Positions 625-63,115 of a stretch of 64,000 bases of DNA are shown here, in pieces. The notes under the pieces are model-generated. The model was not told where the DNA came from. It ran no database searches and saw nothing but the letters and a program-made list of their open reading frames with translations. The position numbers were made by a program, and so were the translations under genes. The stretch covers positions 25,951 through 89,950 of the forward strand of contig DYJS01000001.1 of assembly GCA_020723005.1 (NCBI GenBank). The letters are read 5' to 3'. Source of the DNA: Candidatus Methylomirabilis sp. GTDB lineage: Bacteria > Patescibacteriota > DYJS01. The stretch's first letter is position 1. Each line of letters starts with the position of its first letter.

Positions 625-1200
625 ATGATAAAATTATTTGCAAAGCAGGTAAATGACAATAGTTTTGGATTAGGTAGTGTATTTTCTATTAAAGATATAT
701 GGCAATCTATTCCAGATTTCATATCAACAGCTATAATGTTGGCTGGAGTTTTGGTTGTAATATATTTGATAATTGCAGGTTTTCAATATTTATCATCTGG
801 AGGAGATGAGAAAAAAGTTGAGATTGCAAAGAAAAATATAAATTTCAGCATAACTGGACTTGTAATAGTTTTATTTTCATATGCACTTGTTAATGGATTG
901 ATGAGCTTACTTGGAACAAGACCTATGGACAATGGAGATGATACAATTTTTGAATTAAAGGTTTCGGTTGATAACTGTCCACCACAAACAGATATTATAA
1001 GATTTTCTTTTTCTGGTGGGTCTGGAACAAAGTATAGTCAATGTATTTTCTCTTCTAGTAAAGGATCAACAGGTTGGAAAGATTGTCTAGGTGGTTCTTT
1101 TGACACAGAGGGATTAATTGCAGATGATGGAACAGATGAATTTTATATTAAAGCATCTGATTCAGCAGGTCAAACTGCTCTTGATAGTTGTGTTTGGTAA
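625..1200 (+). CDS. VirB2/TrbC-like pilin-family protein with a Cys-containing C-terminal extension (paralog 3 of 3)
   Basis: Same N-terminal two-helix core (VLVVIYLIIAGFQYLSSGGDEKKVEIAKK), followed by about 100 extra residues with 4 Cys (DNCPPQ...C...C...C). Confidence 0.55.
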   Translation: MIKLFAKQVNDNSFGLGSVFSIKDIWQSIPDFISTAIMLAGVLVVIYLIIAGFQYLSSGGDEKKVEIAKKNINFSITGLVIVLFSYALVNGLMSLLGTRPMDNGDDTIFELKVSVDNCPPQTDIIRFSFSGGSGTKYSQCIFSSSKGSTGWKDCLGGSFDTEGLIADDGTDEFYIKASDSAGQTALDSCVW

Positions 1201-5890: not shown

Positions 5891-7486
5891 ATGAAAAATT
5901 TTTTATTTCGAATTTTCTTAATTTTTTCCTTTTTCTTTCCTTTCTCTTTTGAAAATAAAAAAAGTTTTGCGGAAGTTCAAAATTTTAAAAATTCAAAAGA
6001 GATTCGTTTGGGATTTGTTTACACGAAAGATTCAATAGATTCAATTGACAAATCTTTGAAAGCTTCTCAAAATTTTTTGAATGCAATTTCTCCAACATAT
6101 TACACAGTTCAAAAAAATGGTGTTGTCGAAAACGGAGAGATCTCTGAGATTACAGAAAAAATACGATCATATGGATTTAAAATTTATCCACGATTTAAAA
6201 ATTCTGAACAATTTGCAAATTTTGATGAATTTTTTTGGAATTCAGAATATCAAAAAAATGCAATTTCAAATATAAAAAATTTTACAGAAGGTTTTGACGG
6301 AGTAAATTTGGATTTTGAAGGCTTAAAAAAAGATCAGAAAGATAATTTTTCAAATTTTGTTTGTAATTTAAAAAGAGAGCTTGGAGATAAAATTTTGCAA
6401 GTTGATGTGATTTCAAAAAATGAATCTGTTGGAAATTCTTGGAGTGGAATTTATGATTATAAAAAACTTGGAGAATGTAGTGATTTTGTTTTGATTATGG
6501 CATATGATATGATTACTCCAAACAATAAAATTCCACAACCTTCTGCTCCAATTTGGTGGGTTGATAGTGTTGTGAATTATGCAAAATCAGAGATTTCTTC
6601 TGAAAAAATTATCTTAGGAACTCCTTTTTACGGAATTAGATGGAATTTAAAAACTTTAAAAGGAAGGGTTGTAAATTTTTCAGATGTGATGAATGATTTG
6701 GCAAATTCAAAGTCAAAGTGGGAAACTTTTGATAAAAATTCTGGAACTCAGTTTGCTCAATACACTTTGAATTCTGGAGAACAATTTGCAACTTGGTACG
6801 AAAACAATGCAACAGCAAAAGCTCGTTTTGAAATTTTTACAAAACACAATCTTGGTGGAATTGGTTTTTGGAGACTTACTCAGGAGGATTTTGCAACTTG
6901 GAATGGTTTTTTTGATTATGAATTTATTTCTCAGACAAAAACTTTCATCTCAATGAAACCGAACGAAACGAAAGAGGTTTTTGTTGAATTAAAAAATAGA
7001 GGTTCAAATATCTGGAAAAAAGGAGAATTTAAGCTTGGAACAACAAATAATCGAGACAGAATCTCTCTTTTCCTTTCAAAAAATAGAGTTGAAATTCCTA
7101 AAGATATTCTTCCAAACGAAACGATAAAAATTCCAATTCTTTTGAAAGCTCCAAATTATGAAGGAAGTTTTAAAGAGTATTTTTCTCCAGTTGTAGAAAA
7201 CAGATTTTGGCTTAAAGATATTGGAATTCATTTTGTTATTTTTGTTTCTACAGATGGCAACTCTTCCTGTTGTTCAATTTCTGAAAACAGTGAAAAAATT
7301 TTTATCTCTTCAGAAAAAAATAAACTTTTTGAATTGAAGATAAAAAATACAACAGATGAAGTTTGGAAAAAAGAAGATTTTTTTCTTTCTAATCCAGCAG
7401 ATGAAAATGAAAAATTGCAAATGGTTGAAAACGAGGTTTTGCCAAATGAATTTGCAACTTTTTTGATGAAAACTTCAAAAATGTAG
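5891..7486 (+). CDS. Secreted glycoside hydrolase family 18 (chitinase/peptidoglycan hydrolase-like)
   Basis: N-terminal signal peptide. The GH18 catalytic motif FDGVNLDFEG (DGxDxDxE) is present, plus MAYD and a long C-terminal domain. Confidence 0.75.
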   Translation: MKNFLFRIFLIFSFFFPFSFENKKSFAEVQNFKNSKEIRLGFVYTKDSIDSIDKSLKASQNFLNAISPTYYTVQKNGVVENGEISEITEKIRSYGFKIYPRFKNSEQFANFDEFFWNSEYQKNAISNIKNFTEGFDGVNLDFEGLKKDQKDNFSNFVCNLKRELGDKILQVDVISKNESVGNSWSGIYDYKKLGECSDFVLIMAYDMITPNNKIPQPSAPIWWVDSVVNYAKSEISSEKIILGTPFYGIRWNLKTLKGRVVNFSDVMNDLANSKSKWETFDKNSGTQFAQYTLNSGEQFATWYENNATAKARFEIFTKHNLGGIGFWRLTQEDFATWNGFFDYEFISQTKTFISMKPNETKEVFVELKNRGSNIWKKGEFKLGTTNNRDRISLFLSKNRVEIPKDILPNETIKIPILLKAPNYEGSFKEYFSPVVENRFWLKDIGIHFVIFVSTDGNSSCCSISENSEKIFISSEKNKLFELKIKNTTDEVWKKEDFFLSNPADENEKLQMVENEVLPNEFATFLMKTSKM

Positions 7487-7599: not shown

Positions 7600-8076
7600 A
7601 TGGCACCAAAACAAGATCAAATAATTATTACAGAAGAAGAGAAAAAAAGGCTTGAAGAAGAAATTTTATTTTTAGATACAAAAAAAAGACTAGAAATAGC
7701 AGCTCAAATTAAAAAGGCTGCTGAGTTTGGTGATGTTTCAGAAAATCAACTATATACAGATTTGAAAAGTCAGATGGATATGTTAGATGTTCAAATTTCT
7801 GATCTAAAAAATACATTAAAAAATGCAAAAGTTGTAAGAGTTAAAAATGTTAAAGGAATTATCAATATTAACGACACAATAACCGTTCAATTTGAAGATG
7901 GAGAAAAAGATACTTTCCAAGTTGTTGGCTCAACAAATGCAAATCCTTTAGAGAAAAAATACTCATCAGCTTCTCCAATTGGTCAAGCTGTTATTGGGAA
8001 AAAAGTTGGAGATTTTTCTACATATACATCTGGATCAAGAGTTTTTAAGATTAAAATTCTTTCTATCGCAGATTAG
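7600..8076 (+). CDS. greA: Transcription elongation factor GreA
   Basis: N-terminal coiled coil with GDVSENQLY (GDxSENAEY motif). The C-terminal FKBP-like domain ends ...GSRVFKIKILSI. Confidence 0.85.
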   Translation: MAPKQDQIIITEEEKKRLEEEILFLDTKKRLEIAAQIKKAAEFGDVSENQLYTDLKSQMDMLDVQISDLKNTLKNAKVVRVKNVKGIININDTITVQFEDGEKDTFQVVGSTNANPLEKKYSSASPIGQAVIGKKVGDFSTYTSGSRVFKIKILSIAD

Positions 8077-8119
8077 TTTTTAATAAATTTTTTTGATATA
8101 AATTACAAATTTTCTTTTT

Positions 8120-9031
8120 TTATTTTGTGCTTTCAATTCTAACCCAAGTTTTTGCAAAATCTTTTTTTAGTACCTTCCTCTCCCAAAAAATTTTTATCCA
8201 CAGAAAAAGACGAGCAGGAAATAAAAGTGAGCTCCAAAAAAGCTCTTTTAAATTTTTTGCATAAGAAAATGGAAACCAAAAATATTTCAGTTCGTCAAAA
8301 AAGGTTCTTGTTTTTTTTGAATTTTTTAATACAAAAAAATTTTTTAGCTGAAGATAACCGCCAAGGGAACGAGCTTTTTGTTTATACCAATCAGATAAAT
8401 TTTTTGGATATTTGATGAAAACTTTTGAATTTTCAGAGTAAGAGATTTTTTTTCCAGATTCCAAAATTTTATATGATATGAAAGCATCGTCGCTTAAAAC
8501 TTCGGTTGGAATTTGAAAATTTGGTTTTCTAATAGCCATTAAATAGCCACTCATTGGAAAAAATTCATTTTTTTGAGATGAAATCGTTCTTTTATGGTTA
8601 GCAGACTCAGCGAGTAGATGGCCCCAATAGCCAAATATATTATTTTTTTCATCAATAGAAACTGGATGTCCAGAAACTCCACCAACATTTTCATCAGAAA
8701 ATTTTATAACTAAATTTTGTAAAGCATTTTTTCCCCAAAATGTGTCTCCATCACTTAAAATCCAAATTTCTCCTGTAGCTTTTTCAAATAAAAGTTTCAG
8801 TGCAGAAGGTTTTCCTTTCTGTTCGTCTTGAATGTGAATAAAATTTTGAAAATTATATTTTTCACAAACTTTTTCTGCAGAAATTTTCGTTTCCTTGTCT
8901 GGACAAGCAAGAAGAATTTCGATTTCGTAATTTTTATTTTTATAAATTTCTAATTCAAAAAGAATTGATTCAAAAAGTTTTTCAATTGTTTTTGGTTCTT
9001 TCCAAGCAGTGATAATAATTGAAATTTTCAT
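8120..9031 (-). CDS. Family 2 glycosyltransferase
   Basis: MKISIIITAWKEPKTIEKL... and SDGDTFW (the DxD region), a typical GT2 N-terminal fold. Confidence 0.75.
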   Translation of the reverse strand: MKISIIITAWKEPKTIEKLFESILFELEIYKNKNYEIEILLACPDKETKISAEKVCEKYNFQNFIHIQDEQKGKPSALKLLFEKATGEIWILSDGDTFWGKNALQNLVIKFSDENVGGVSGHPVSIDEKNNIFGYWGHLLAESANHKRTISSQKNEFFPMSGYLMAIRKPNFQIPTEVLSDDAFISYKILESGKKISYSENSKVFIKYPKNLSDWYKQKARSLGGYLQLKNFFVLKNSKKTRTFFDELKYFWFPFSYAKNLKELFWSSLLFPARLFLWIKIFWERKVLKKDFAKTWVRIESTK

Positions 9032-9054
9032 AGATTTTTTGCATAGATTTAATT

Positions 9055-11505
9055 TTATTTCAGCTTTTCTAAGATTTTTTCAATTTCTTCGTTCTCTAAA
9101 GTTCTTGTTTCAGATGAAAATTCAAACCTTGCTGTGAATTTTTTAAATTCATTTGTTTCAAAAAGATCAATAATTTCAAAAGAGATTAAAATTTTGTCGT
9201 TATTTTGAGCTTTCTCCTTATTATCTTGAACCTGTTGAAGTGTTTTTAATTTTTCTTCAATCTCATTTTTTAAATCTAAAGTTTTTTTCTCTTTTGAAAA
9301 TTCATAATTTATATCACGAACTATGCTTGGAAATTTTGGTGCATCTTTAAATTTTTTTTCTAAGGATTTTTTTGTGTTTTCTAAATCGCTTAAAGAGATT
9401 TCACAGATAATCGCATTTGCACCTTTGATTTTTATGTCTGAGTCTGAGATAAACCATTTTGAAAATTTTGTTTTGAGGTTAGAAATTTCTACTCCAAAAT
9501 GAATAGAGATTGTTTTTATCACACCAGAAATTTTTCTCATAATCATTTGTGGTGAAGATTTTGAAAGAATTGCAAATGCGAAAGATTTCCATTCTTTATT
9601 TTCTTGCATAGGTAAATTTTTTGGATTTTCTGGTTTTTCAAAAACTTTTCCAATTTCAAATATCATTTGTTCATCATAAAATCCACGATTTTTCTCAAGA
9701 ACATCAAGTAAATTTACAGAGATTTGTGGGCGAAGGAAGCTCATTTTTTTAGAAGGAGCATTTATAATTTCTAAAAGTTTTGATTTATCTAAATTTAAGA
9801 CATCGGCAAATTTTTCGTCTATCATAAAAGAATATGTATAAATTTCAGCAAAACCCATCCCAACCATCAAATCTCGTAGTTTAAATTCCGAATCTATCCA
9901 AGTTTCTTTTTTTGAAGGTTTTGAAAAACCTAAAATTGGAGTGTTAGAAATTTTTGTGAGAGAATCCATTCTCCCAATTTCTTCAACTAAATCTTCAGCA
10001 ATTTCAAGATCAAATCTCCAAGAAGGCACTACGATGGTTAAAGAATTTTCTTCTTGAAATGGATACCTTTTTTTTTCAGAAAAATCTGTAAATTGCGAAG
10101 GTGAAAGACTTGAATCAATTTCTTCCATTTCTTGAGTTTGGGAATTTTTAATAAAAGTTTTTGAATTTGGATTTGGATCAGAAACTTCACAACCTATTTT
10201 CTTTAAACAATCAATTTGAAAATCTAGATCAATTGGATGTCCAATAATTTTTTCTGCAAAATTTTTTGGCAAAAAAATCGTCTTTTTTTCTTCATCAAAA
10301 TTTTTGTAATCAAAAAATTCTGCAGATTTTATCCCCAAATGATTTAGAATAAATTTTTGTGCAAGATCAATATGTGAAAAATCTACACCATGTTCAAATC
10401 TTTGTGCAGCTTCAGAAAGAAGATCAAATTTCCTTGAAGTTTTTCGAATTAAATTTGTTGGAAAGCTTGCAGATTCAATCAAAACCTCTGTTGTATTTTC
10501 ATCTGCTTCAGTATTCAAACCACCCATCACTCCAGCCAATCCAACTGGAACAGAATTATTCGTAACAAGCAAATCGTTTTCATTCAAAATTCTTTCGTTT
10601 CCATCGAGTGTTGTAAACTTTTCATTAATTTTTCCTGTCCGAACCCCAATCTGAATTTTTCCATTTCCAACTTTTTTAAGTTTTTGATAATCAAAAACAT
10701 GAAAAGGTTGTCCTGTTATAAGCATTGCAAAATTTGTTGCATCCACAAGCCTAGAGATTGGACGAATTCCATTACTAGCTAAAATTTGAGAAATGTAGAG
10801 ATCAGATTTTTGTTCTGAAAAAGAAAATTTTGATAAGGCAAATCTTTTTATTCGTTTATCAAATTCACCAAAAATATTTTCTTTACTTTGCAAAAGTTCA
10901 ACTTCTGGAAATTTAAAATTTACTTTCAAATTTAAAAATGCACCGATTTCTCTTGCAACTCCAATATATGAAAACATATCTGCACGGTTTGAAAGTGCTT
11001 TGTTGTCAATTTCAAGAACAAAATCGTTAAAATATGGAAAAACTTCAAGCAATTTTCCAAGATGAGTATTTTCTGGAAAAATAAAAATTCCAGAATGATC
11101 AATTCCAAGCCCAAGCTCTTTTTGTGAAAGCGAAACCCTTTCACTAATAATTCCTCGCAAATCTTTTGCTTCTACAACAAACGAAAGATGTCCAAATCCA
11201 CCCGGAATTGTTCCACCTTTTTCAACAACTGCAATTTTGTCTCTAACTTTCAAGTTTTTTGCACCTGTGACGACTTGATAATTTTTACCATCAAGTTTTT
11301 TTACTTCCAATAAAACTAATTTTTCTGCATTTGGATGATTCTCAATTTTTTCAACTTGAGCAATTTCAATGTCTTTATATTTTTCTCCAAAATTTACAAC
11401 TGGATCATTTTCTGCAATATTTAAAGTCATAAATTTTGCCAAATCATAAGGATTTGGTAGTTTTTCATCAAAAAATGTTTGAAGTAAATTGTAGGAAAGT
11501 TTCAA
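9055..11505 (-). CDS. pheT: Phenylalanine--tRNA ligase beta subunit
   Basis: 816 aa. The N-terminus MKLSYNLLQTFFDEKLP...HPNAEKLVLLEV carries the tRNA-binding domain. The B3/4 and B5 regions are also present. No pheS gene is adjacent. Confidence 0.9.
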   Translation of the reverse strand: MKLSYNLLQTFFDEKLPNPYDLAKFMTLNIAENDPVVNFGEKYKDIEIAQVEKIENHPNAEKLVLLEVKKLDGKNYQVVTGAKNLKVRDKIAVVEKGGTIPGGFGHLSFVVEAKDLRGIISERVSLSQKELGLGIDHSGIFIFPENTHLGKLLEVFPYFNDFVLEIDNKALSNRADMFSYIGVAREIGAFLNLKVNFKFPEVELLQSKENIFGEFDKRIKRFALSKFSFSEQKSDLYISQILASNGIRPISRLVDATNFAMLITGQPFHVFDYQKLKKVGNGKIQIGVRTGKINEKFTTLDGNERILNENDLLVTNNSVPVGLAGVMGGLNTEADENTTEVLIESASFPTNLIRKTSRKFDLLSEAAQRFEHGVDFSHIDLAQKFILNHLGIKSAEFFDYKNFDEEKKTIFLPKNFAEKIIGHPIDLDFQIDCLKKIGCEVSDPNPNSKTFIKNSQTQEMEEIDSSLSPSQFTDFSEKKRYPFQEENSLTIVVPSWRFDLEIAEDLVEEIGRMDSLTKISNTPILGFSKPSKKETWIDSEFKLRDLMVGMGFAEIYTYSFMIDEKFADVLNLDKSKLLEIINAPSKKMSFLRPQISVNLLDVLEKNRGFYDEQMIFEIGKVFEKPENPKNLPMQENKEWKSFAFAILSKSSPQMIMRKISGVIKTISIHFGVEISNLKTKFSKWFISDSDIKIKGANAIICEISLSDLENTKKSLEKKFKDAPKFPSIVRDINYEFSKEKKTLDLKNEIEEKLKTLQQVQDNKEKAQNNDKILISFEIIDLFETNEFKKFTARFEFSSETRTLENEEIEKILEKLK

Positions 11506-18918: not shown

Positions 18919-21900
18919 ATGAATTTTAAACAAAAAATTTTTTCATTTTTCGCAAGTATGTTGATTTTTTCATCCTCTGCTAAAGCAGAAGATATGGATG
19001 TAAATATCAATGTTAGTGATACAACAACTATATATTCTTCTGTTACAACACCTGTTGATAATTCAGTTGTTTCGTCAGTTCCATTTTTTTCCGGAACTGC
19101 AGGTGCAACATCAACAACTGTTGCAAAAGTTGATCTTTCTTTAAGAGATAATCAAACTGGTTGGTTTTGGGATCCTTCAACAAATTCTTGGAATATTTCA
19201 GAAGTTTGGTTTGTTGCAGAAGGAACAAATTCTTGGAATTTTTCTGGGAATATGCCAACTTGGACAGAGGGAAGAAATTATTCTGTTCGTTCTAGAGCAA
19301 CAGGTGCAAATAGTATCGTTGAAACTCCTGGAGCTGGCAATGATTTTACATATAGAACTACAAATGCTTTAAGAATTTCTCCAGAATATGTTCAATTACA
19401 AAAAGGAACACAATTTACATTTTCTGCATATAATGGGGTTGGAAATTATGTTTGGACAACAAATTCAAATTTTGGCAGAATTGTTCCAGTTGGAACAGGA
19501 TCGGAAGCAGTGTTTGTTGCAGATGAAGTTACAACAAATTCGTATACAACAGTAACTGTTCAAAGTGGAACAGAAAGTGCAACAGCAATTGTTGTCATCA
19601 CAGAAAATTTAGGAAGATTATTGGATTTAATACCAGATTTTTCTACAATTGAAAAAAACTCATCAGTTGAACTTTTAGCTCTTGGAGGATTGAATTCTAT
19701 GAGTTATAATTGGGAAGTTAAAGATGAAAATGGTCAAAATGTTTCTGGATTTCTTCCAAGTTTAACAACGGAAGAAAATACAAATGTTTTTACAGGTCTT
19801 TCAACTGGTGTTTATAGTGTAAAAGTTGTAAATAATGGAGTTTCTGATACATCTTATATTCTTGTTATTGAGCAGGGCTCAAATCTTTTGGAAGTTGATC
19901 CACCACATACAAATCTAGACGAAAATGAAACTTCAAATATAAGTGTTTTAGGTTCTGTTGGAGATGTGAATTGGAGAATTTTAGATACAGAAATTGCAGA
20001 TATAAATGGTTCATCAACAGGAACAACAATAGAAGTTGAGGGTGATGAATATGGATATACACAAGCAGTTGTTTCTGATTCTCTTGGAAATTATGGAGTT
20101 GGTCATATCTCTGTTAATAATTCTGGTTCATCAACACTTTTTTACATTGATCCTAGTACAGCAGTTATTCCTGTTGGATCTGCAGTAAATTTAAGTGTTT
20201 ATGGAGGAGATGGAAGTGTTAGCTGGAGAATGAGTAATCAAACAGTTGGAACAACAAATATTATAGGTGATAGAAGAGCAATTTTTACAGGAGTCTCTGA
20301 AGGTGCAGTTGATGTAACTGTTCAAGATAGTAGTGGAAATGAAGTTGTTTCAAAAATTTTAGTTGTAAAAATTCCACCAATTACTTGCGAAGCAGGTTCT
20401 ACTGAAGTTGAATGTCAGTTTTCTGATACAGAATTATATCTTCTTCCAAATTTTTCTGTTTTACCAATTGGAGGAACTCAAAATTTTACAGCCTACAATG
20501 TTCAAGGAAGTGCAACTTGGGAGTTATCATCAACAGAATTTGGTTCGATTAACCAAACAACAGGAGATCAGGTTACTTTTTCTGCAACACAAATTGGAGA
20601 GCTTGATCTTTCGGTCAGAGATACTGGTGGTAGAGCATCAACAGCAAGAATTATGATTTTTGACCCCCTTGATCCACCACCTTCAAATAGAGAATTTTCA
20701 GTTATTCCAGGTTTTTCTGTTTTATATCCAGGTCAGGTTGTTATAATGGGAATTGCAGGAAGTCAAGAAATTATAAATGAGGGTGTTACTTGGAGCTCTT
20801 TAAATGAATCTGTTGCAATAATAGATCCAACAACAGGAGTTTTAACTGCAGGAGTAATACCAGGAACAACGACAATTATTGCAAGAACTCCTTCTGGAGA
20901 AGAAGCATATGCAACTGTTATTGTTTCAAATCCAAACGATTCGCTTGATGTAAATCCGAAATTTTTAGAATTAGACATAGAAGAAACTGCACAACTTTTT
21001 GTTTCTGGTGGAAGTGGTCCAATTCAATACACATCAACGAATTCAAGCATAGCATCAGTTGATTCAAACGGTGTTGTTCGTGGTGTTTCTGTTGGAAATG
21101 CAACAATTATTGTAACAAGATCTGGAAAGGTTGGTTTTTCAAATATAACAGTTGTTGATCCAAATTCACAAAGCTTTTATTTAACACCATCTTTTTCAGA
21201 AGTTCCAGTTGGATATTCTCAAATTATAGTTCCAAAAAATTTTTCTGGATCGGCAGACAATATAGTTTGGACAAGCTCTGATCCAGCAAATTTTGAAATT
21301 ATAAAATTAACCCCTGAAGATCCAAATTATCAAGTAGGAGCAGTTAAAGTAAATGTTCGTTCTGCAACATATGCAACAATAAAAGCTCAAGACGAATCTG
21401 GAAAAGAGGCAACTGCAACAGTTAGTGGTATTGAAGAAAATCTTGCAGATCTTGTAAATAATCCTTCCTCTGTTTCTTTTTCAAAAGTTGGTGAATGTAT
21501 TACAATTCAAGTTTTAAATAAATCTGCTAATGCGACAGGTTATACTTTTGAATCATCAAATCCAACATATGTTCAGGTTGATGAGAATGGAAGAATTTGT
21601 GCAGTAAATCTTCCAATTTCTGGAACTGCTCAAGTTATAATCACAACAACAGAAGAAGGAACAGGAAGAACAGCAGAAACAGTAGTTACTTTAATTGGGA
21701 CATCAACAAATGATACAGATGGTGACGGAATGCCAGATTGGTGGGAAGATCAATATCCTTGTATGGATAAAAATACATCAGATTGGGACAGAGATTATGA
21801 TAATGACGGATGGAATAATATGGAAGAATATCTTGCAGGAACAAATCCTTGTGATGCTGGTTCAATTCCAACAGATACAGATGGTGACGGAATGCCAGAT

Positions 21901-22218
21901 TGGTGGGAAATTGAAAATGGTTTAGATCCAAATGATCCATCAGACAGAGACGAAGATCCAGATAATGATGGATTAACAAACTTTGAAGAATATCATGATG
22001 TTATTAAAAAATATGGTGGAACAGCAGATCCATTTGATCCTGACACAGATAATGATGGATTTTCAGATGGTGATGAAATGAAAAAATTTGGAACAAATCC
22101 ACTTGTCCCAAATGGCAAAAAAACAAATCCAAATACTGGAACAAGCTCAATAATTATTCTTTTAAGCACATTGATTGCAATCAAGTTTTCAAAAAGCTTA
22201 AAATTTAAAAAACAATAA
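18919..22218 (+). CDS. Large cell-surface protein with multiple Big_2 (bacterial Ig-like) domains, TSP3-like Ca-binding repeats and a C-terminal anchor
   Basis: Has a signal peptide. It carries at least 6 Big_2-like repeats, for example VSGGSGPIQYTSTNSSIASVDSNGVVRGVSVGNATIIVT. The repeat TDTDGDGMPDWWE occurs twice with identical DNA. The C-terminus is NPNTGTSS + TM + KSLKFKKQ. Confidence 0.75.
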   Translation: MNFKQKIFSFFASMLIFSSSAKAEDMDVNINVSDTTTIYSSVTTPVDNSVVSSVPFFSGTAGATSTTVAKVDLSLRDNQTGWFWDPSTNSWNISEVWFVAEGTNSWNFSGNMPTWTEGRNYSVRSRATGANSIVETPGAGNDFTYRTTNALRISPEYVQLQKGTQFTFSAYNGVGNYVWTTNSNFGRIVPVGTGSEAVFVADEVTTNSYTTVTVQSGTESATAIVVITENLGRLLDLIPDFSTIEKNSSVELLALGGLNSMSYNWEVKDENGQNVSGFLPSLTTEENTNVFTGLSTGVYSVKVVNNGVSDTSYILVIEQGSNLLEVDPPHTNLDENETSNISVLGSVGDVNWRILDTEIADINGSSTGTTIEVEGDEYGYTQAVVSDSLGNYGVGHISVNNSGSSTLFYIDPSTAVIPVGSAVNLSVYGGDGSVSWRMSNQTVGTTNIIGDRRAIFTGVSEGAVDVTVQDSSGNEVVSKILVVKIPPITCEAGSTEVECQFSDTELYLLPNFSVLPIGGTQNFTAYNVQGSATWELSSTEFGSINQTTGDQVTFSATQIGELDLSVRDTGGRASTARIMIFDPLDPPPSNREFSVIPGFSVLYPGQVVIMGIAGSQEIINEGVTWSSLNESVAIIDPTTGVLTAGVIPGTTTIIARTPSGEEAYATVIVSNPNDSLDVNPKFLELDIEETAQLFVSGGSGPIQYTSTNSSIASVDSNGVVRGVSVGNATIIVTRSGKVGFSNITVVDPNSQSFYLTPSFSEVPVGYSQIIVPKNFSGSADNIVWTSSDPANFEIIKLTPEDPNYQVGAVKVNVRSATYATIKAQDESGKEATATVSGIEENLADLVNNPSSVSFSKVGECITIQVLNKSANATGYTFESSNPTYVQVDENGRICAVNLPISGTAQVIITTTEEGTGRTAETVVTLIGTSTNDTDGDGMPDWWEDQYPCMDKNTSDWDRDYDNDGWNNMEEYLAGTNPCDAGSIPTDTDGDGMPDWWEIENGLDPNDPSDRDEDPDNDGLTNFEEYHDVIKKYGGTADPFDPDTDNDGFSDGDEMKKFGTNPLVPNGKKTNPNTGTSSIIILLSTLIAIKFSKSLKFKKQ

Positions 22219-51793: not shown

Positions 51794-52954
51794 TTATTCT
51801 TTTTTGTATCTACTTAAATTAAGCAAAACTCCACTAGCAAACATTAAAACAGACAGCGAAGAGCCTCCATAACTGATAAAAGGAAGAGGAACTCCAGTCA
51901 TCGGAATAAGATTTGTAAAAGATGCAATGTTAATAAAGGTCTGAATTCCAATCCAAGATGTGATTCCTAGTGCAATTAACATAAAAAATTTATTTTCTAT
52001 TTTTTTTGCAATGTCAATTCCTCTCCAAATATAAATTCCATAGATTAGTAAAATAATTGCAACAGATTTTATAAAACCAAATTCTTCTCCAATAATTGTG
52101 AAAATTCCATCAGAAAATGCTTCTGGGATAAAAAAAGCTTGCTTACTTCTTCCAACACCAATTCCGTTTATTCCTCCAGAACCAATTGCAAGAAGTGATT
52201 GATAAATTTGATGTCCGTCTCCAGTTGGGTCTTCTGTTGGGTTTGTCCAAACTTGAAATCTTTTTAATCGATAATCATTTTCAGAGTGTAAAATTGTATA
52301 ATATAAAGCAAGTCCAGCTAAACTAGCCATAAATGCTAGGTGAGAGAGATTTGCTCCAGAAACAAAAAAAATAATTACAGAGACTGCAAAAACAACAACT
52401 AAAGTTCCAAGATCTGGTTGTTTTATTATCAAAAAACTTAACATTCCAAGAAGAATTAAAAAAGGAACAAAACCAAAAGAAAAGCTTTTTACATCTTTTC
52501 CCTTTGAATCAAGCCAAGTTGCAAGATAAATTATTACAATAAATTTTCCAATTTCAGAAGGTTGAAATGTTAAAAAACCTAAATTGACCCATCTGAAAGC
52601 TGTTGTGTTTAAATTTGTTCCAAGTGGAGAAAAAACAACAAGAAAAAGTGTAAAAATTAGTCCAAAAAAAGCAGGAAGTGCAATTTTTTTATAAAATTTT
52701 ATTGGGAAAAAAAATCCAAAAAAAAGCCCAATCCATCCAATAAAAGTTGATTTTAGCTGTTTTATAAAGAAAAAATATGGTGATGAAATATCTCCATTTT
52801 CTACTAAACTTTGTGCATGTGGCAAAGAGCTGGAAAGAACGAATACAAGTCCTAAAACATTCAAAACTAAAATTGCAAAAAGCAAAATTTTATCAAAAGA
52901 AGATCTTTTTTCAATCACATCTTCTTTTTTTAATCTTTCAAGCAAATTAGACAT
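51794..52954 (-). CDS. ftsW: SEDS-family peptidoglycan glycosyltransferase (FtsW/RodA)
   Basis: About 10 TM segments. Conserved loop ...RFQVWTNPTEDPTGDGHQIYQSLLAIGSGGINGIGVGRS... Confidence 0.85.
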   Translation of the reverse strand: MSNLLERLKKEDVIEKRSSFDKILLFAILVLNVLGLVFVLSSSLPHAQSLVENGDISSPYFFFIKQLKSTFIGWIGLFFGFFFPIKFYKKIALPAFFGLIFTLFLVVFSPLGTNLNTTAFRWVNLGFLTFQPSEIGKFIVIIYLATWLDSKGKDVKSFSFGFVPFLILLGMLSFLIIKQPDLGTLVVVFAVSVIIFFVSGANLSHLAFMASLAGLALYYTILHSENDYRLKRFQVWTNPTEDPTGDGHQIYQSLLAIGSGGINGIGVGRSKQAFFIPEAFSDGIFTIIGEEFGFIKSVAIILLIYGIYIWRGIDIAKKIENKFFMLIALGITSWIGIQTFINIASFTNLIPMTGVPLPFISYGGSSLSVLMFASGVLLNLSRYKKE

Positions 52955-53840: not shown

Positions 53841-54965
53841 TTATTTAAGAAGATTTTGTTTGTTTGAATTTTGTAAAAGGCTTTGAATTTCTTCCAAAAA
53901 AATTCTTGGACCTTCTTTTACCCATTCACGAAATTCTGTTAAATCTTTTTTAACCTCTTTTGAGCTTGAAAAATTTAAAATTTTATCCAAATCATATTTT
54001 TTTGAGCATAACGCAATCCCCATAGAGTCGGCAATTTTTGATCTAAAAGCTTGTTCAAATTGTCCTTCAGTTGGAATTAACATAGTTGGTTTTTCAAAAA
54101 ACATAGATTCGCAAAAAGTTTCAAATCCACCAGAAGTAACAACAGCACGAGCATTTGCCATTAAAATTAAAAATTTTTTCTCATGTAAATAATGAAAAAT
54201 TAAATTTTTATCGTATCTCCAAAACTTATCAATTTTTTTACTATCTGTGAAGCAGTGAATTTTTATATCAGGATTTTTTTTATGCCACGATATAACATCT
54301 TCCATATAACCACTATTCATCAAATAAACAAAAATATAGTCTCCTTTTTTATGTTCTAAATCAAAAACGGATTTTCTAATGAGAGGAGGAACAACTCGCA
54401 TTTTTTTTGATTTTATATTTTCAAATTTTTTAGAGAACGAGAGTGCCCAAAATCTATTTGTAGTAATTCCAATTAAATCATTAAAAGTTTTCATTGTTTG
54501 AATTGTAAAAAACGATTTCCCTTTTTTCTCTAATTTTAAAAAGTTTTTATGAGTTAATAAAAAGTGATTTCCAACAGTTATGCTTGGTATCTTTTTTTTT
54601 GAAAAAAGTTGATATATTGAAAGTAACAAAGAATAAAAATTTATTATTATATCAGGTTTTGTTTCCTCCATAATTTTTTCAATATTTTTTGAATATTTAA
54701 AAATTAGTGGAAACTTTTTAATAATATCCTTTAAGGTTAAAAAAATTGATAATCTTTTTCCCTCTTTATAAACTAGTCCAGGTGTTTTGAGTTGATGAAT
54801 TTTTCCTTCAAATCTTTTTGAAAAATATTCTGGAATTGGTCTCTCTGTTTTGTCTGAAATCACAGCAACAATTTCATCTCCATTTGCTTCTAAAATATCT
54901 GCCATTGCAAGAGCTTGACTCATATGTCCTCTTCCTTCTGTAATAATAAAAAATGCAACTTTCAT
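53841..54965 (-). CDS. MurG-like GT28 glycosyltransferase
   Basis: The N-terminal G-loop IITEGRGHMSQALAMADIL resembles MurG's GGTGGH. The C-terminus VVTSGGFETFCESMFFEKPTMLIP resembles the MurG donor-binding region. It lies in the same strand block as ftsW. Confidence 0.6.
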   Translation of the reverse strand: MKVAFFIITEGRGHMSQALAMADILEANGDEIVAVISDKTERPIPEYFSKRFEGKIHQLKTPGLVYKEGKRLSIFLTLKDIIKKFPLIFKYSKNIEKIMEETKPDIIINFYSLLLSIYQLFSKKKIPSITVGNHFLLTHKNFLKLEKKGKSFFTIQTMKTFNDLIGITTNRFWALSFSKKFENIKSKKMRVVPPLIRKSVFDLEHKKGDYIFVYLMNSGYMEDVISWHKKNPDIKIHCFTDSKKIDKFWRYDKNLIFHYLHEKKFLILMANARAVVTSGGFETFCESMFFEKPTMLIPTEGQFEQAFRSKIADSMGIALCSKKYDLDKILNFSSSKEVKKDLTEFREWVKEGPRIFLEEIQSLLQNSNKQNLLK

Positions 54966-55662: not shown

Positions 55663-56040
55663 ATGGAGTTTAAAAAGTATCCAAAAAGGTTTTTAAGACA
55701 CATAATTTCTGCTCCAATAATTTATTCTATTATTTTTCCTATTTTAGTTGCAGACATCTTTGTTGAAATTTATCACAGAATCTGTTTTCCACTTTATGGA
55801 ATTCCAATTGTTGAAAGAAAAAAATATATCAGAATAGATCGACATAAACTTTCAAAACTTTCTTTTATTGAAAAACTAAATTGTGTTTATTGTCAATATG
55901 TTAACAATTGGATAAATTATGCACAAAAAATCGCTGGAGAAACAGAGAGATATTGGTGCGGAATTAAACAAAATAATCTTGAAAATTTTATCTCACCAGC
56001 TCATCAAAAAGATTTTGATGATGTAAAAAATTACGAATAA
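55663..56040 (+). CDS. Hypothetical protein with an N-terminal TM and a CxYCQ...WCG motif
   Basis: 125-aa ORF. No family recognised. Confidence 0.35.
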   Translation: MEFKKYPKRFLRHIISAPIIYSIIFPILVADIFVEIYHRICFPLYGIPIVERKKYIRIDRHKLSKLSFIEKLNCVYCQYVNNWINYAQKIAGETERYWCGIKQNNLENFISPAHQKDFDDVKNYE

Positions 56041-56109: not shown

Positions 56110-57246
56110 TTGCTAGATTTAAAAATTTTGATAGTTTATTTTTGTAAAATAAAATTTTTGAAAAAATTTATTAAATTATTTGCAGTTTTGTTTTTTTTTG
56201 CATTTCCAAATTTTTTAAAAAGTGAATCTCCAACAGGAATTGTTGTTTCGCCTCTCAAAATAAATTTTTCTGATGAGTTTGGAAATTTAAAAACTGGCTC
56301 TTCCTATCAATCAAAATTTGAAGTTCAAAATACAACAGATGAAGATTTAAAAATAGTTATCGTTTCTTCAGATGGAAAGATTGGCGATGCAAGAGAAAGT
56401 TGGATAAAAATTTTAGAAGAAGATCAAAATTTTACGCTTGGTTCAAAAGAAAACTCAAATTTTCAAAACTCAAAAGTTATTAATTTTGTTCTTGAAATTC
56501 CAAAAGATGCAAAAGAGTCTGCAAATGAGCTTTTAATTGTTGCAAAAACAGATTCAAAAGATTCTGGATCAATAAATTTCTCTTTTGGGGTTGGAGTAAA
56601 AATAAAATTTAATGTTTCTGATACTAAAAAAATTATATCTGATGTTTCTGAAATAAAAATTTTATCCGAAGAAAATGGAAAAAATTATGAAGTTTCTAAA
56701 AATTTAAAATTTAATTTAGGTGAAATTGATTTTTTAAAATTTAAGAGGAAAAAAGATGTAAAATTTTTAGTTTTTGGAACTTTGCAAAATAACTCAAAAC
56801 TTTTTTCATATCCAGATATAAAACTTGATTCTAGTTCAAAGGATGATTATTTTTTGTTTTCTCCAGAAGAAGAAACAAAGGAATTTGTTGAAAAAATTTC
56901 ACAAGGAAGGAGCGAAGAAGAGGTTTTTAAAATTATCTCTGAAAAATCTCAAATTAGACTTTCTGCTCCAAATCTTTTTTATTCTCCAAATTTGAATCCA
57001 CAAGAAAAGTTTTTTCTTGATCCAAAAGAGATTTACATTAAAGATTTTTCAATTTTTAAAACATACAAAATTAAGATTTTAATTTATGAAAATGGAGAAT
57101 TTGTTGGGGAAAAGGTTTTTGAAGTTAGTGAAAATCTTTGGGTAAAAATTTTGGCTATCGGATTTTTTATCTTTTTTGTAATTTTGGTAGTTTCGATTTT
57201 TTTCATAATTTTTTTCAAAATAAAGAAACGAAATGAAGAAAAATAG
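56110..57246 (+). CDS. Exported/envelope hypothetical protein with a C-terminal TM anchor
   Basis: N-terminal hydrophobic segment and a C-terminal TM plus KIKKRNEEK tail. A 14-nt overlap joins it to the downstream M23 peptidase gene. Confidence 0.45.
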   Translation: MLDLKILIVYFCKIKFLKKFIKLFAVLFFFAFPNFLKSESPTGIVVSPLKINFSDEFGNLKTGSSYQSKFEVQNTTDEDLKIVIVSSDGKIGDARESWIKILEEDQNFTLGSKENSNFQNSKVINFVLEIPKDAKESANELLIVAKTDSKDSGSINFSFGVGVKIKFNVSDTKKIISDVSEIKILSEENGKNYEVSKNLKFNLGEIDFLKFKRKKDVKFLVFGTLQNNSKLFSYPDIKLDSSSKDDYFLFSPEEETKEFVEKISQGRSEEEVFKIISEKSQIRLSAPNLFYSPNLNPQEKFFLDPKEIYIKDFSIFKTYKIKILIYENGEFVGEKVFEVSENLWVKILAIGFFIFFVILVVSIFFIIFFKIKKRNEEK

Positions 57247-58432
57247 TATAAAAAAATACCTTTTTTCTTTTCTTTTTTCCTTTTCTTTTTTCCCGAATCA
57301 GAAAATATTTTCAGAAAATAAAGAAGATTCTGAAATTGAAGATAGGAAAAAAAGACTTGAAGAGATTCAGGTTCAAATTCAAGCTATTGAAGAAGATATT
57401 TTAAAGATTTCTCAAAATAAATCTTCTGTTCAAGATGAAATTTCAATACTTGAAAAATCTATTTCAAAAACAAATTTAGATATCTCTGCAATAGAAGATA
57501 GTATTGTTTTGAAAAATTTGGAAATTTCTGATTTGCAAAAAGAGATTGATGTAAAAAATTTGGAAATTGATTCAAAAAAAGGATTTTTGAATGAAGTTGC
57601 ATATGAATTTTTAAAAATTTCAAAACCAACAACTCTTGATATTTTGCTTGGTGAAAAAAGTTTATCTGATTATTTGCGATCTAGCCAAAATTTGAAAATT
57701 TTGCAAGAAAAACTTGTTTTGATGCTTGATGCTCTTCGTTCAGAAAGAGAAGATTTGAAAAGTAAGCAGAGAAATTTGAAAATCGAGATTGATAATTTAA
57801 ACAATTTGACAGAACAACAAAAAGAGCTTCTTTTTACACTTGAGCAACAAAATTCTTCAAAGAAAATGATTCTTCAAGATCTTGCAGGCAGTGAATCTGA
57901 ATATCAAAAATTGTTAGCTGAATCTAGAATTGATTACGAAAATTTGAGAGTTGAAATTTTACAACTTGAAGAATCTAGGCTCTCTAAAAATGAAACAGAA
58001 AATTCTGGAACAAGAGATATTGATATTTCAATTTCTTGGCCTTGTGATAGTAGAAAGATTACAGCATATTTTTTAGATGAAGATTATAAAAAATATTTTG
58101 GTGTAAATCATTATGCAATAGATATCTCTCTTACACAAGGAAGTCCTGTTTATGCAGTTGCTGATGGAAAGGTTTCTAAAGTTCGTGATGCTGGAATGGG
58201 GTATAATTATTTGATGATTCAATATGACGATCAAGTTTCATCTGTTTATGGTCATGTTTCAAAGTTTAAAGTTTCTGAAGGAGAGAAAGTAACAAAGGGT
58301 CAGGTTGTTGCACTTTCTGGTGGAGCACCTGGAACACCTGGAGCTGGGAGAATGACAACTGGAGCTCATTTACATTTTGAATTGATTGTTGATGGAAAAC
58401 ATGTAAACCCACTTGTTTATTTACCAACTTGA
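57233..58432 (+). CDS. Peptidase M23 (LytM/EnvC-like) with an N-terminal coiled coil
   Basis: A long coiled-coil segment. The catalytic site appears intact: HYAIDIS...GSPVYAVADG...GHVSKF...GAHLHFEL. Confidence 0.8.
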   Translation: MKKNSIKKYLFSFLFSFSFFPNQKIFSENKEDSEIEDRKKRLEEIQVQIQAIEEDILKISQNKSSVQDEISILEKSISKTNLDISAIEDSIVLKNLEISDLQKEIDVKNLEIDSKKGFLNEVAYEFLKISKPTTLDILLGEKSLSDYLRSSQNLKILQEKLVLMLDALRSEREDLKSKQRNLKIEIDNLNNLTEQQKELLFTLEQQNSSKKMILQDLAGSESEYQKLLAESRIDYENLRVEILQLEESRLSKNETENSGTRDIDISISWPCDSRKITAYFLDEDYKKYFGVNHYAIDISLTQGSPVYAVADGKVSKVRDAGMGYNYLMIQYDDQVSSVYGHVSKFKVSEGEKVTKGQVVALSGGAPGTPGAGRMTTGAHLHFELIVDGKHVNPLVYLPT

Positions 58433-59559
58433 TGAAAATTTTTAGAAAAAAATTTTTGTATTTAGTTTTTATATTTTTCTTTTTATCTTCTTTTTTTGAT
58501 TTAAATGAAAAAAAAGTTTCTGGAATAAAAGTTTTTTTCAAAGATAGTTTTTATAATTGTGAATATAATTTTTCTGAAAAAAAATTTATTACTTGTGAAA
58601 ATTTTAATTCTTCGGAATATAAATTTGATGCAGAAAAAAATATAGTTCGGAATTTTATCTCTCTTGAGATTGATTTTGATGAAGATGTTTTTTTAGTTGA
58701 TACTTGGAGTGGAACAATTTCAGAAATTTTAATTTCTTTAGGCTTTAGAAATTTAGATCTTATTAAAATAGAACCAAATTTAAATGAATTTATTTTTGAA
58801 AATAAAAAAATTCAAATCAATTCTTTAAATGAAGTTTTTTTGAATGGAGAAAAAAAAATAGTTTCTTCAAAAACTATTAAAGAGTCTTTAAAAGAGATAG
58901 GTTTTTCAGAAGATGAGATTTTAAAATTTTCAACATATCCAGAAAAAAATTCAAAAATTTTTAACGGAATGAAGATTTTTATGTATCAGTCATCCTCAAA
59001 CGAAATTATTGAAGAAGAGATTTTAAAGTTCGAGGAGAAAATAATTTATGATTCAACGATTTCTGAAGGGGTTCAAAAGATTTTATCTGAAGGGCAGAAT
59101 GGATTAAAAGTTAAAAAATATAAAATTAGCGAAGAGAATGGGGAAGTTATTTCAAAAGATCTTATTTCAGAAAAGATTGAAATTGAAAAGATTGATAGAA
59201 AAATTTTAATTGGAACAAAAAAAAAGGAAAGTAAGGAGGATAGTAAATTTTACATAGGAAAAGCAACTTGGTATGGTTGGAAAGGTCCAGATGGAACTTG
59301 GGAGTATCAAGATTATAATAAAAATCTTCCAAGTAGCGATTGGTATGGATTTGGATGTGCAAGTAGAGATTATCCAAAAGGGACAAAGCTTCTTGTAACA
59401 AATCTTGCAAATTCAAAAAGTATGATTTGTATGGTGAATGATTATGGTCCAGAAATAAATGAAAATGATCCTAGGATTATAGATTTATCACAAACAGGGT
59501 TTTCTCAAATAGCAAATTATAGATTAGGAAAAATAAATGTTCGTGTGGAAGAAGCATAA
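58429..59559 (+). CDS. G5-domain / RlpA-like double-psi beta-barrel (lytic transglycosylase-like) protein
   Basis: The C-terminus GKATWYGWKGPDG...GTKLLVTNLANSKSMICMVNDYGPEINENDPRIIDLSQTGFSQIA fits the RlpA DPBB fold. An upstream G5-like segment is present. A 4-nt overlap joins it to the M23 gene. Confidence 0.65.
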   Translation: MMKIFRKKFLYLVFIFFFLSSFFDLNEKKVSGIKVFFKDSFYNCEYNFSEKKFITCENFNSSEYKFDAEKNIVRNFISLEIDFDEDVFLVDTWSGTISEILISLGFRNLDLIKIEPNLNEFIFENKKIQINSLNEVFLNGEKKIVSSKTIKESLKEIGFSEDEILKFSTYPEKNSKIFNGMKIFMYQSSSNEIIEEEILKFEEKIIYDSTISEGVQKILSEGQNGLKVKKYKISEENGEVISKDLISEKIEIEKIDRKILIGTKKKESKEDSKFYIGKATWYGWKGPDGTWEYQDYNKNLPSSDWYGFGCASRDYPKGTKLLVTNLANSKSMICMVNDYGPEINENDPRIIDLSQTGFSQIANYRLGKINVRVEEA

Positions 59560-61951: not shown

Positions 61952-62155
61952 TTTAGATTTTTTGATTCTTTCAGAAAGGGAATATTTTGAATTGTTTTTT
62001 TATCATTTTAGCTTTTTTTATCTTAAATAGAGGGTTAAGAACCTATATTTTTTGATTTTTATTTTTGAAAATGAAATTAGAAGTTTTTGATTAAATAAAT
62101 TTTTTCTCTTTACAAATAAAAATTTGTTTTTAGAAATTCTTTGCAGAAAATCAGA

Positions 62156-62227
62156 TGCGAGATAGAGCAGAGGCAGCTCGCCGGGCTCATAACCCGGAGG
62201 TCGTTAGTTCGAATCTAACTCTCGCAA
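62156..62227 (+). tRNA. tRNA-Met (anticodon CAT), possibly initiator-type
   Basis: Cloverleaf: acceptor stem TGCGAGA/TCTCGCA, D-arm GAGC/GCTC, anticodon stem CCGGG/CCCGG with loop CTCATAA, T-loop TTCGAAT. The 3' CCA is not encoded. Three consecutive G:C pairs close the anticodon stem. Confidence 0.85.
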
Positions 62228-62364
62228 CAAGAGAAAATAATTTTTTAAATTTTTTAAGAAATTCGTTTTTAAAAAAAATTTTTAAAAATTTCGAATTTAC
62301 TTTTGCAAATTTAATTAAAAATTTTAGTTTTTAAAAAAATTAGAAATTATTTTTTAAAACAAAA

Positions 62365-63058
62365 ATGCTTGTAGTAAATTCTATTTCAAAACATATTGAC
62401 ACAGATTTGATTTTTCAAAATGTAATTTTTTAATTTCAAAAGGAGATAAAATTGCTCTGATTGGAAAAAATGGGGTAGGGAAAACGACACTTTTAAAAAT
62501 TTTATCAGAAATTGAATTGCCAGATTTATCAGAAAAAAACTTTTAGAAAAAATAAAAAACCTTTAAATTTCTCTACAGTAACACTTTCTCAAGAGGGATT
62601 TAATTCAAAACAAAAAGTTTTGATTTTATTTATGGAGAAAACAAAGAGAGAATTTTTTGGGAACAAAAAGTTTTTGAGCTTAAAAGAATTCTTAAAAAAA
62701 GTTATTTTGAAAAATTTATGAATGATTTGATTGATGCTGAAAGAAATTTAGCAAAAAATTCTGATGAAATTTTTTCTTCTAAAATTGAAAAGATTTTTGA
62801 ACTAACTGGAATTTCGGAAAAAATTTTATTTTCTGAAATTGATTCACTTTCTGGTGGAGAAAAACAAAGTTAAAGTTGATGAAAATTTTACTTACTTTTT
62901 CAAATTTTTTGATTCTTGATGAGCCAACAAATCACCTTGATCTTTTTTCTATTCAAGAGTTGGAAAATTTTTGTAAAAAATTTTCAGGGTTAATTCTTGC
63001 AGTGAGTCATGATGATGATGATGATTTTGAGAAGATTGGGAAGTCTGTGAAATTATAA
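62365..63058 (+). pseudogene. ABC transporter ATP-binding protein pseudogene with multiple stops and frameshifts
   Basis: Fragments across three frames: MLVVNSISKHIDTDLIFQNVIF*, Walker A ALIGKNGVGKTTLLKIL, signature LSGGEKQ, then Walker B/H-loop ILILDEPTNHLD...VSHD in the 62876..63058 ORF. Confidence 0.55.
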
Positions 63059-63115
63059 ATCAATTTTACAAATTTTGTTTTCTTTTTAAAAAATTTTTGG
63101 AATTAAAATTTTTCT

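Follow-up and report, generated by a model that had tools for sequence, protein, structure and literature searches.

In mycobacteria, the endopeptidase RipA and the DUF348-G5 protein RpfB interact and hydrolyse peptidoglycan synergistically (PMC2262848), and the genes rpfB and yabE, the latter from Firmicutes, lie in a conserved tatD/ksgA context (PMC1084345). How the septal wall is split in candidate-phyla bacteria, whose division machinery is minimal, is poorly understood. The subject of this study is a run of three overlapping plus-strand genes, here called g1, g2 and g3 and together the triad, in a stretch of 64,000 nucleotides from contig DYJS01000001.1 (assembly GCA_020723005.1, positions 25,951 to 89,950); this whole stretch is referred to as the window. 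The g2 gene encodes a predicted coiled-coil M23 peptidase and g3 an RpfB/YabE-type protein that ends in an RlpA-type double-psi beta-barrel (DPBB), and both enzymes are ordinary members of known families. What is new is their pairing, which is lineage-specific and known from two genomes, namely the window and the Patescibacteria metagenome-assembled genome (MAG) GCA_054682915.1 (locus L004), together with the orphan gene g1 that precedes them.

The product of g2 opens with a signal peptide, judged by inspection, and continues through a long coiled coil to a C-terminal domain that Pfam assigns to Peptidase_M23 at 84.4 bits, against a gathering cut-off of 28.7 (E-value 6.7e-24). Occupancy of the a and d heptad positions reaches 6.0-6.6 of 8 for the two blocks that begin at residues 31 and 61 and stays at 4.1-5.4 over the rest, up to about residue 240, and the 226-residue coiled-coil region holds four prolines and glycines, as compared to 22 in the last 144 residues of the protein. 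A weak match to an SMC coiled coil covers residues 29-249, and relatives of g2 carry the PcsB-type coiled coil PF24568 (CC_PcsB). Residues 46-368 align with 8tzk_E, a PDB chain named 'Peptidase M23' in its deposition and probably the EnvC chain of an FtsEX-EnvC complex. Within the peptidase domain, residues H293, D297, H341, H379 and H381 are invariant in all 27 aligned relatives and, by comparison with PDB sequences, line up with the motifs of ShyA; the HxxxD, H and HxH elements presumably supply the zinc-binding and catalytic residues, with roles as in LytM. The same 27-sequence alignment yields the family signature PGTPGAGRxTTG[AP]HLHFE. Judged from these sequence features, g2 is a predicted exported coiled-coil protein with a complete M23 catalytic set, and a new member of a known and large family that joins a signal peptide, a coiled coil and an M23 domain.

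Very many homologues of about 400 residues align with g2 from end to end at 30-39% identity, and those with a named source come mostly from Patescibacteria or other groups of the candidate phyla radiation (CPR). The nearest NCBIfam models are Pgp3, ShyA, MepM and NlpD, all scoring far below their equivalog cut-offs, and the EnvC equivalog NF008644 reaches 41.1 bits against a cut-off of 270. The H-D-H-H-H set is intact in 54 of the 55 full-length family members listed, including those that adjoin ftsX, so that an intact site in an EnvC-like coil is the rule for this family and not an oddity. For the same reason, the FtsEX-linked coiled-coil M23 proteins of Firmicutes, Actinobacteria, Berkelbacteria and others look like active enzymes and not like EnvC-type activators.

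The g3 product consists of an N-terminal hydrophobic helix, DUF348-like modules, a G5 domain and an RlpA/expansin-type DPBB. Pfam calls G5 at 57.2 bits (cut-off 23) and DPBB_1 at 37.3 bits (cut-off 28.8; E-value 3.2e-9). DUF348 (PF03990) is left uncalled by Pfam in g3 itself; the alignment matches this region to the segment that carries PF03990 in 17 relatives. The g3 protein aligns along its whole length with relatives that carry DUF348, G5 and DPBB_1 and that bear the JGI label 'YabE (DUF348 family)'. An AlphaFold2 model built from the alignment of relatives has a mean pLDDT (predicted local distance difference test) of 74.9, with values of 73-91 in the DUF348-like region, and its top Foldseek match is RpfB of Mycobacterium tuberculosis (5E27, 'ubiquitin-like domains'; E-value 7e-10 over 142 columns). 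Further Foldseek matches are to G5 modules (TM-score normalised by target 0.87 for the g3 G5 and 4fzq), to the DPBB of PA4485 and to bacterial expansins (EXLX1 domains). Similarly, PDB sequence matches pair the G5 segment with the G5 domains of SasG, Aap and HP0197, and the DPBB with PA4485 (4avr), where NDYGP of g3 is aligned to NDRGP. The aspartate of this N-D-Y-G-P motif is invariant in 19 of 19 g3 relatives, and it presumably corresponds to the catalytic aspartate of RlpA.

Thus g3 combines a scaffold of the RpfB/YabE type with a DPBB of the RlpA type, which occupies the catalytic position. The protein falls short of a full RlpA, because Pfam finds no SPOR domain in it, there is no lipobox (no cysteine precedes residue 43), and the RlpA model TIGR00413 reaches 34.8 bits where 82.15 are required. 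Neither an Rpf nor a 3D domain is matched by Pfam, the C-terminus being DPBB_1, and a distant relative, P0030, has PF06725 (3D) in place of the DPBB. The protein is another case of the domain displacement described for this group (PMC1084345). Two lineage-specific inserts, a cysteine-containing one near the N-terminus and one of about 20 residues in the DPBB, are common to g3 and its L004 orthologue, P0003.

The original prediction made for this locus, which was drawn from the sequence before any search, had called the M23, G5 and DPBB domains, and all three calls are borne out by Pfam scores above the gathering thresholds (E-values 6.7e-24, 2e-15 and 3.2e-9). Its EnvC-like coiled coil in g2 agrees with the 8tzk_E alignment, the heptad periodicity and the scarcity of proline and glycine, its intact LytM site is present with all five residues, and its suggestion of a CPR organism fits the labels of the closest homologues, which are Patescibacteria or CPR. 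It had treated the intact site as a peculiarity of an EnvC-like protein, a view that the family as a whole contradicts, and it had seen in g3 a G5 segment joined to an RlpA-type barrel while missing the RpfB/YabE architecture that contains them.

The first gene, g1, is of a different kind. Its product has a signal-peptide-like N-terminus, a beta-rich ectodomain, a C-terminal transmembrane helix and a basic tail. The mean Kyte-Doolittle value of 19-residue windows reaches 3.25 in the transmembrane segment, and an equivalent hydrophobic segment lies at the C-terminus of both the L004 orthologue and P0070, a protein of 330 residues with a g1-like layout. An exhaustive phmmer search against 1.84 billion cluster representatives returned g1 itself, the L004 orthologue (44%) and, marginally, P0070, and a word-indexed search returned only g1 itself. 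Nothing rose above threshold in Pfam (E-values up to 10), NCBIfam, PHROGs or PDB sequences and profiles; matches to NEW3, GH101 domain 5 and Ig_CFAP74, and one PDB match at E 1.4, were sub-threshold and at noise level. The possibility that g1 is a diverged FtsX was considered and rejected: Pfam gives no FtsX or FtsX_ECD match, and an hhalign comparison of the g1 family with a profile of 18 FtsX sequences returned a probability of 0.8%. The gene is an orphan, and its layout identifies it as encoding a putative membrane-anchored surface protein.

The arrangement of the three genes is compact (Table 1). They had been described as overlapping by 14 and 4 nucleotides; the first value holds at the g1/g2 junction, and the second applies to the g2/g3 junction only when g3 is read from TTG 58429. 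With the ATG at 58432, which is where public annotation of this contig begins g3 (JGI 3300000227 TB_AS07_7DRAFT_10000015 = NCBI GCA_973415815.1), the overlap is a single nucleotide within the sequence ...ACTTGATGAAA... At the equivalent junction of L004 the overlap is 4 nucleotides, so that g2 and g3 are tightly joined in both triad genomes. Comparison with the L004 orthologue suggests that g1 probably begins at TTG 56158, with the N-terminus MKKFIKLFAVLFFF..., and reading from this codon gives MKKFIKLFAVLFFFAFPNFLKSES. The junctions were read with genetic code 11, in which open reading frames (ORFs) of at least 150 codons span 86% of the window; an alternative code with UGA as a sense codon was rejected in view of this coverage and of the M23 profile, which stops at the TGA.

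Table 1. Coordinates of the three genes, their junctions and their domains in the window.
Feature	Position	Strand	Remarks
g1	56110-57246	+	ORF, 378 amino acids
g1 C-terminal transmembrane segment	57124-57231	+	residues 339-374, then KIKKRNEEK tail
g1/g2 junction	57233-57246	+	14-nucleotide overlap; g2 ATG 57233 inside g1, whose TAG ends at 57246
g2	57233-58432	+	ORF, 399 amino acids; ATG start, TGA stop at 58430-58432
g2 coiled-coil region	57320-57997	+	about residues 30-255
g2 Peptidase_M23 (PF01551)	58106-58411	+	residues 292-393; H293-x3-D297, H341, H379-x-H381
g2/g3 junction	58430-58434	+	TGATG; one base common to stop and start
g3	58432-59559	+	375 amino acids from ATG; mechanical ORF from TTG 58429 = 376 amino acids
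g3 DUF348-like (ubiquitin-like) region	58654-58956	+	about residues 75-175
g3 G5 (PF07501)	59002-59220	+	residues 192-264; Pfam 2e-15
g3 DPBB_1 (PF03330) core	59332-59547	+	residues 302-373; N-D-Y-G-P aspartate

Outside the window, the triad was found in one other genome, L004, where the gene upstream of the M23 gene is 43% identical to g1, the M23 protein 62% identical to g2 and the downstream protein 58% identical to g3. The flank beyond g3 differs between the two, with RecJ in the window and a gene with a weak Glyco_trans_2_3 match in L004. A scan of genome collections anchored on the g2-family alignment gave at least 80 loci, a sample and not a census, and hidden Markov model scans of the 80 g2-anchored loci listed detected no g1-like ORF, and the triad in none. 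The triad is likewise missing at the loci of three further close g2 homologues (L092-L094) and at three loci of two distant g3 homologues (P0007 at L006; P0053 at L007 and L008). The expectation that the triad would be syntenic in relatives therefore holds for L004 and fails at all of these other loci, and because L004 is the only occurrence beyond the window, the triad is a derived arrangement, belonging to a lineage with sparse sampling. A lineage-specific g2 pattern, FGVNHYAIDI, points the same way, matching a single metagenome locus (L095) that holds a more distant M23 gene with neither g1 nor g3 nearby.

Where the two enzyme families are encoded apart, each has its own recurrent neighbours. 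Among the loci listed, the gene upstream of the full-length g2 family is FtsX in 18 of 42 scorable cases, and the downstream gene is an S41/PDZ protease in 18 of 43. Strings of ftsE, ftsX, M23 and, in some, the S41/PDZ protease occur at loci between L026 and L081 (Firmicutes, Actinobacteria and others) and in Berkelbacteria (L057, 4209-6933). In Patescibacteria the neighbour is another: gltX lies directly upstream of the M23 gene in seven close loci (L012, L014, L015, L016, L018, L019 and L023; pairs at about 4.3-7.2 kb), often preceded by a WecG/TagA-type glycosyltransferase gene, and it is also upstream of the three next-closest g2 homologues, L092-L094 (about 3.4-6.3 kb). Genes of about 250 and 490 codons upstream of Patescibacteria g2 homologues were considered as ftsE and ftsX and rejected, Pfam identifying them as WecG/SpoU-type and glutamyl-tRNA synthetase genes. 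On the side of g3, an RrnaAD (KsgA-family) gene lies directly downstream of the relatives P0007 (L006) and P0053 (L007, L008); g3 itself lacks a tatD/ksgA context, having the M23 gene upstream and RecJ downstream. The only separate ORF matched among the loci listed is a LysM-DPBB_1 (RlpA-like) gene of a Meiothermus MAG (L064, 8529-9176), about 2 kb downstream of the M23 gene, which matches through its DPBB part only and has no G5 or DUF348; in none of the other 80 g2-anchored loci listed does a DPBB gene lie close to an M23 gene. In three Clostridia loci (L052:4699-6297, L067:4777-6366 and L088:4804-6348), single LysM-G5-M23 proteins are encoded in which G5 is fused to M23.

The reading that we consider reasonably probable is that the triad is a lineage-specific operon for remodelling the cell's own peptidoglycan during growth and daughter-cell separation, in which g2 and g3 form a self-directed hydrolase pair. 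On this proposal, g2 would cut peptide cross-links, the activity predicted from its sequence, and g3 would cleave or loosen glycan strands. By analogy with RipA and RpfB, tight co-expression through coupled translation might supply both activities in fixed proportion, and g1, to judge from gene order, might hold the pair at the membrane or keep it in check there. The persistence of the three-gene block through such divergence (43, 62 and 58% identity for g1, g2 and g3), despite a changed downstream flank, argues for this proposal, as does the stop/start overlap of g2 and g3 in both triad genomes. A self-directed role is favoured because both families are widespread and their neighbours elsewhere are housekeeping or cell-division genes.

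Several points weigh against this self-directed operon. Conservation of the triad is known from two genomes only, and the g1/g2 overlap is not kept in L004, where a gap of 71 nucleotides separates the two genes. The g1 protein has no interpretable fold; an AlphaFold2 model from a three-sequence alignment is unreliable at pLDDT 41 and resolves only strands at residues 64-167 and a helix at 343-377. No FtsX, the usual regulator of a coiled-coil hydrolase, is within reach of g2. Expansins bind and loosen walls and are not known to hydrolyse them. The E. coli RlpA is inactive, a catalytic aspartate setting the active P. aeruginosa RlpA apart from it (PMC9712689). Since a DPBB is thus sometimes non-catalytic, g3 may bind or loosen the wall and not cleave it. 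Finally, RlpA is reported to act on denuded glycan produced by amidases, not endopeptidases (PMC6895207), so that the chemical logic of pairing g3 with g2 is not guaranteed.

The strongest rival, which we regard as unlikely though by no means negligible, is adjacency without partnership, whereby two unrelated wall hydrolase genes and a surface-protein gene are merely co-transcribed in a compact genome and their products act independently, like those of their separately encoded homologues. In every other genome examined, the g2 and g3 families occupy separate loci, g2 beside gltX or ftsEX and g3 beside a KsgA-family (RrnaAD) gene, the spacing of g1 and g2 differs between the two triad genomes, and overlapping junctions are frequent in the window, others being found at 49535/49538, 49875/49885 and 53522/53538, so that overlap alone is unremarkable. 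Mere adjacency sits less easily with a block of three genes that has come through 38-57% protein divergence despite the change of its downstream flank, and with a g2-g3 stop/start overlap kept in both genomes; there is also a precedent for partnership between an endopeptidase and a DUF348-G5 enzyme (PMC2262848).

Many Patescibacteria are episymbionts, and it is conceivable that the triad is directed at a host, with a secreted endopeptidase and a glycan-cleaving protein breaching or remodelling the host wall at the attachment site and g1 serving as their anchor. The organism is a Patescibacteria bacterium, export signals are present by inspection on all three products, and the triad is derived, lineage-specific and accompanied by an orphan surface protein. 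We nevertheless consider such a weapon improbable: the g2 family is found throughout Patescibacteria, usually beside gltX, and elsewhere in ftsEX operons, g3 belongs to an RpfB/YabE-type family whose context beside a KsgA-family gene is conserved, and the neighbours of the triad (FtsW-like, RecX-like and RecJ-type) suggest no attack apparatus. An equally doubtful proposal is that the three genes form a self-contained, FtsEX-independent wall-cleaving machine in which g1 replaces FtsX, anchoring and gating an active EnvC-like M23 enzyme and its RpfB-like partner; were the organism an episymbiont, the site of host contact would be a possible place for this machine to act. A lysis cassette of a prophage or mobile element, made up of an endolysin and accessory proteins, is very improbable: the M23 and DPBB domains do match PHROGs of phage peptidases, endolysins and tape-measure proteins, but these matches are confined to the catalytic domains, no PHROG matches g1 or the flanking ORFs, the g2 pattern FGVNHYAIDI has no match in 2.9 million viral contigs, no phage gene, integrase or structural gene lies near the triad, base composition around it is uniform at a G+C fraction of 0.24-0.25, and the gene family is chromosomal and widespread.

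The surroundings of the triad are those of a housekeeping chromosome, with genes for aminoacyl-tRNA synthetases, topoisomerase I, ribosomal protein L1, RecJ, UvrC and Der along the window; none of the genes annotated in its 64 kb encodes FtsX. The original prediction had joined the triad to nearby glycoside hydrolase family 18 (GH18) and SEDS/MurG genes as a dedicated peptidoglycan module, and this does not withstand inspection of the map. The GH18 gene, at 5891-7486, is about 50 kb away. The SEDS gene (51794-52954, minus strand), which is FtsW-like at 324.8 bits against a cut-off of 337.5, lies 3.2 kb from the triad on the opposite strand, and five ORFs intervene, among them methyltransferase-like, glycosyltransferase, RecX-like and hypothetical ones. 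The supposed MurG gene (53841-54965, minus strand) has no MurG model among the matches of its product, which matches only the MJ1255/VC2487-family glycosyltransferase model, below the cut-off. Between this glycosyltransferase gene and the FtsW-like SEDS gene, both on the minus strand, are the methyltransferase-like gene and an ORF of 93 codons.

Upstream of g1 by 69 nucleotides lies an ORF of 125 codons (55663-56040, plus strand) with an N-terminal hydrophobic segment and four cysteines; its product has no match in Pfam, NCBIfam or PHROGs, and it may open the transcription unit. An Rfam search upstream of the triad found no riboswitch or other RNA, a terminator scan around the triad found no terminator-like site, and a promoter scan was uninformative, with fewer promoter-like sites than in shuffled sequences. 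Beyond the triad, a gene-poor 1.1 kb at 61952-63115 holds a tRNA-Met gene (CAT, 62156-62228) and an ORF of 60 codons (62876-63058) whose product (ILDEPTNHLD...SHD) resembles the Walker-B/D-loop fragment of an ATP-binding cassette (ABC) ATPase and is probably a pseudogene remnant. Towards the other end of the window, a gene at 18919-22218 (plus strand) encodes a surface protein of 1,099 residues with Big_2 and TSP3 repeats and sits in the sole stretch of elevated G+C (0.35 as compared to about 0.26), and a gene of the T4SS_pilin family lies near the window start (625-1200, plus strand). In L004, the minus strand at 7616-10173, which is 3.6 kb downstream of the triad, encodes a LolD-like ABC ATPase together with a LolCE/MacB-like permease of 612 residues. 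The permease gene was considered as evidence of ftsEX linkage and rejected, the protein being LolCE/MacB-like with an FtsX-type C-terminal domain and no FtsX_ECD.

One narrow lineage has thus united a coiled-coil M23 endopeptidase with an RpfB/YabE-type protein that is encoded apart from it elsewhere, an arrangement that echoes RipA and RpfB. If the proteins cooperate, the triad would be an independent and genetically hard-wired example of the principle of pairing an endopeptidase with a glycan cleaver, and a small system in which to ask how a coiled-coil hydrolase is controlled without an adjoining ftsX. Because the enzymes are routine and two genomes are known to carry the arrangement, the practical value lies mainly in better annotation, and for CPR genomes the gltX-M23 adjacency of Patescibacteria and the finding that ftsEX-linked coiled-coil M23 proteins normally keep intact sites are of use.

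Among known systems, the triad resembles the mycobacterial RipA-RpfB pair, which also combines a coiled-coil endopeptidase with a DUF348-G5 protein ending in a glycan-cleaving domain, an activity that is here predicted. The endopeptidase domain of g2 is, however, M23 where that of RipA is NlpC/P60, the C-terminus of g3 is an RlpA-type DPBB where that of RpfB is a lysozyme-like Rpf domain, and the g2 and g3 genes overlap, whereas ripA and rpfB are not known to be adjacent. The layout of g3, in which a hydrophobic helix at the N-terminus is followed by DUF348-like modules, G5 and a small C-terminal wall-active domain, resembles that of YabE/SpsB of Firmicutes and the RpfB family, and the loci of two of its distant relatives share with that group a position directly upstream of a KsgA-family gene; g3 differs in ending in DPBB_1 in place of 3D/Sps or Rpf, and in adjoining an M23 gene and not ksgA. 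The FtsEX-coupled proteins EnvC, PcsB, CwlO and RipC resemble g2 in their signal peptide, two long coiled-coil segments and C-terminal hydrolase-type domain. In E. coli, the LytM site of EnvC is degenerate and the protein serves to activate amidases, whereas g2 keeps all five catalytic residues, and no ftsX adjoins g2 or its close Patescibacteria relatives, which have gltX upstream. With RlpA and PA4485-type proteins, g3 shares a DPBB_1 core with a conserved aspartate in N-D-x-G-P; unlike RlpA, it shows neither a SPOR domain nor a lipoprotein cysteine, and its targeting to the wall would come instead from G5 and DUF348.

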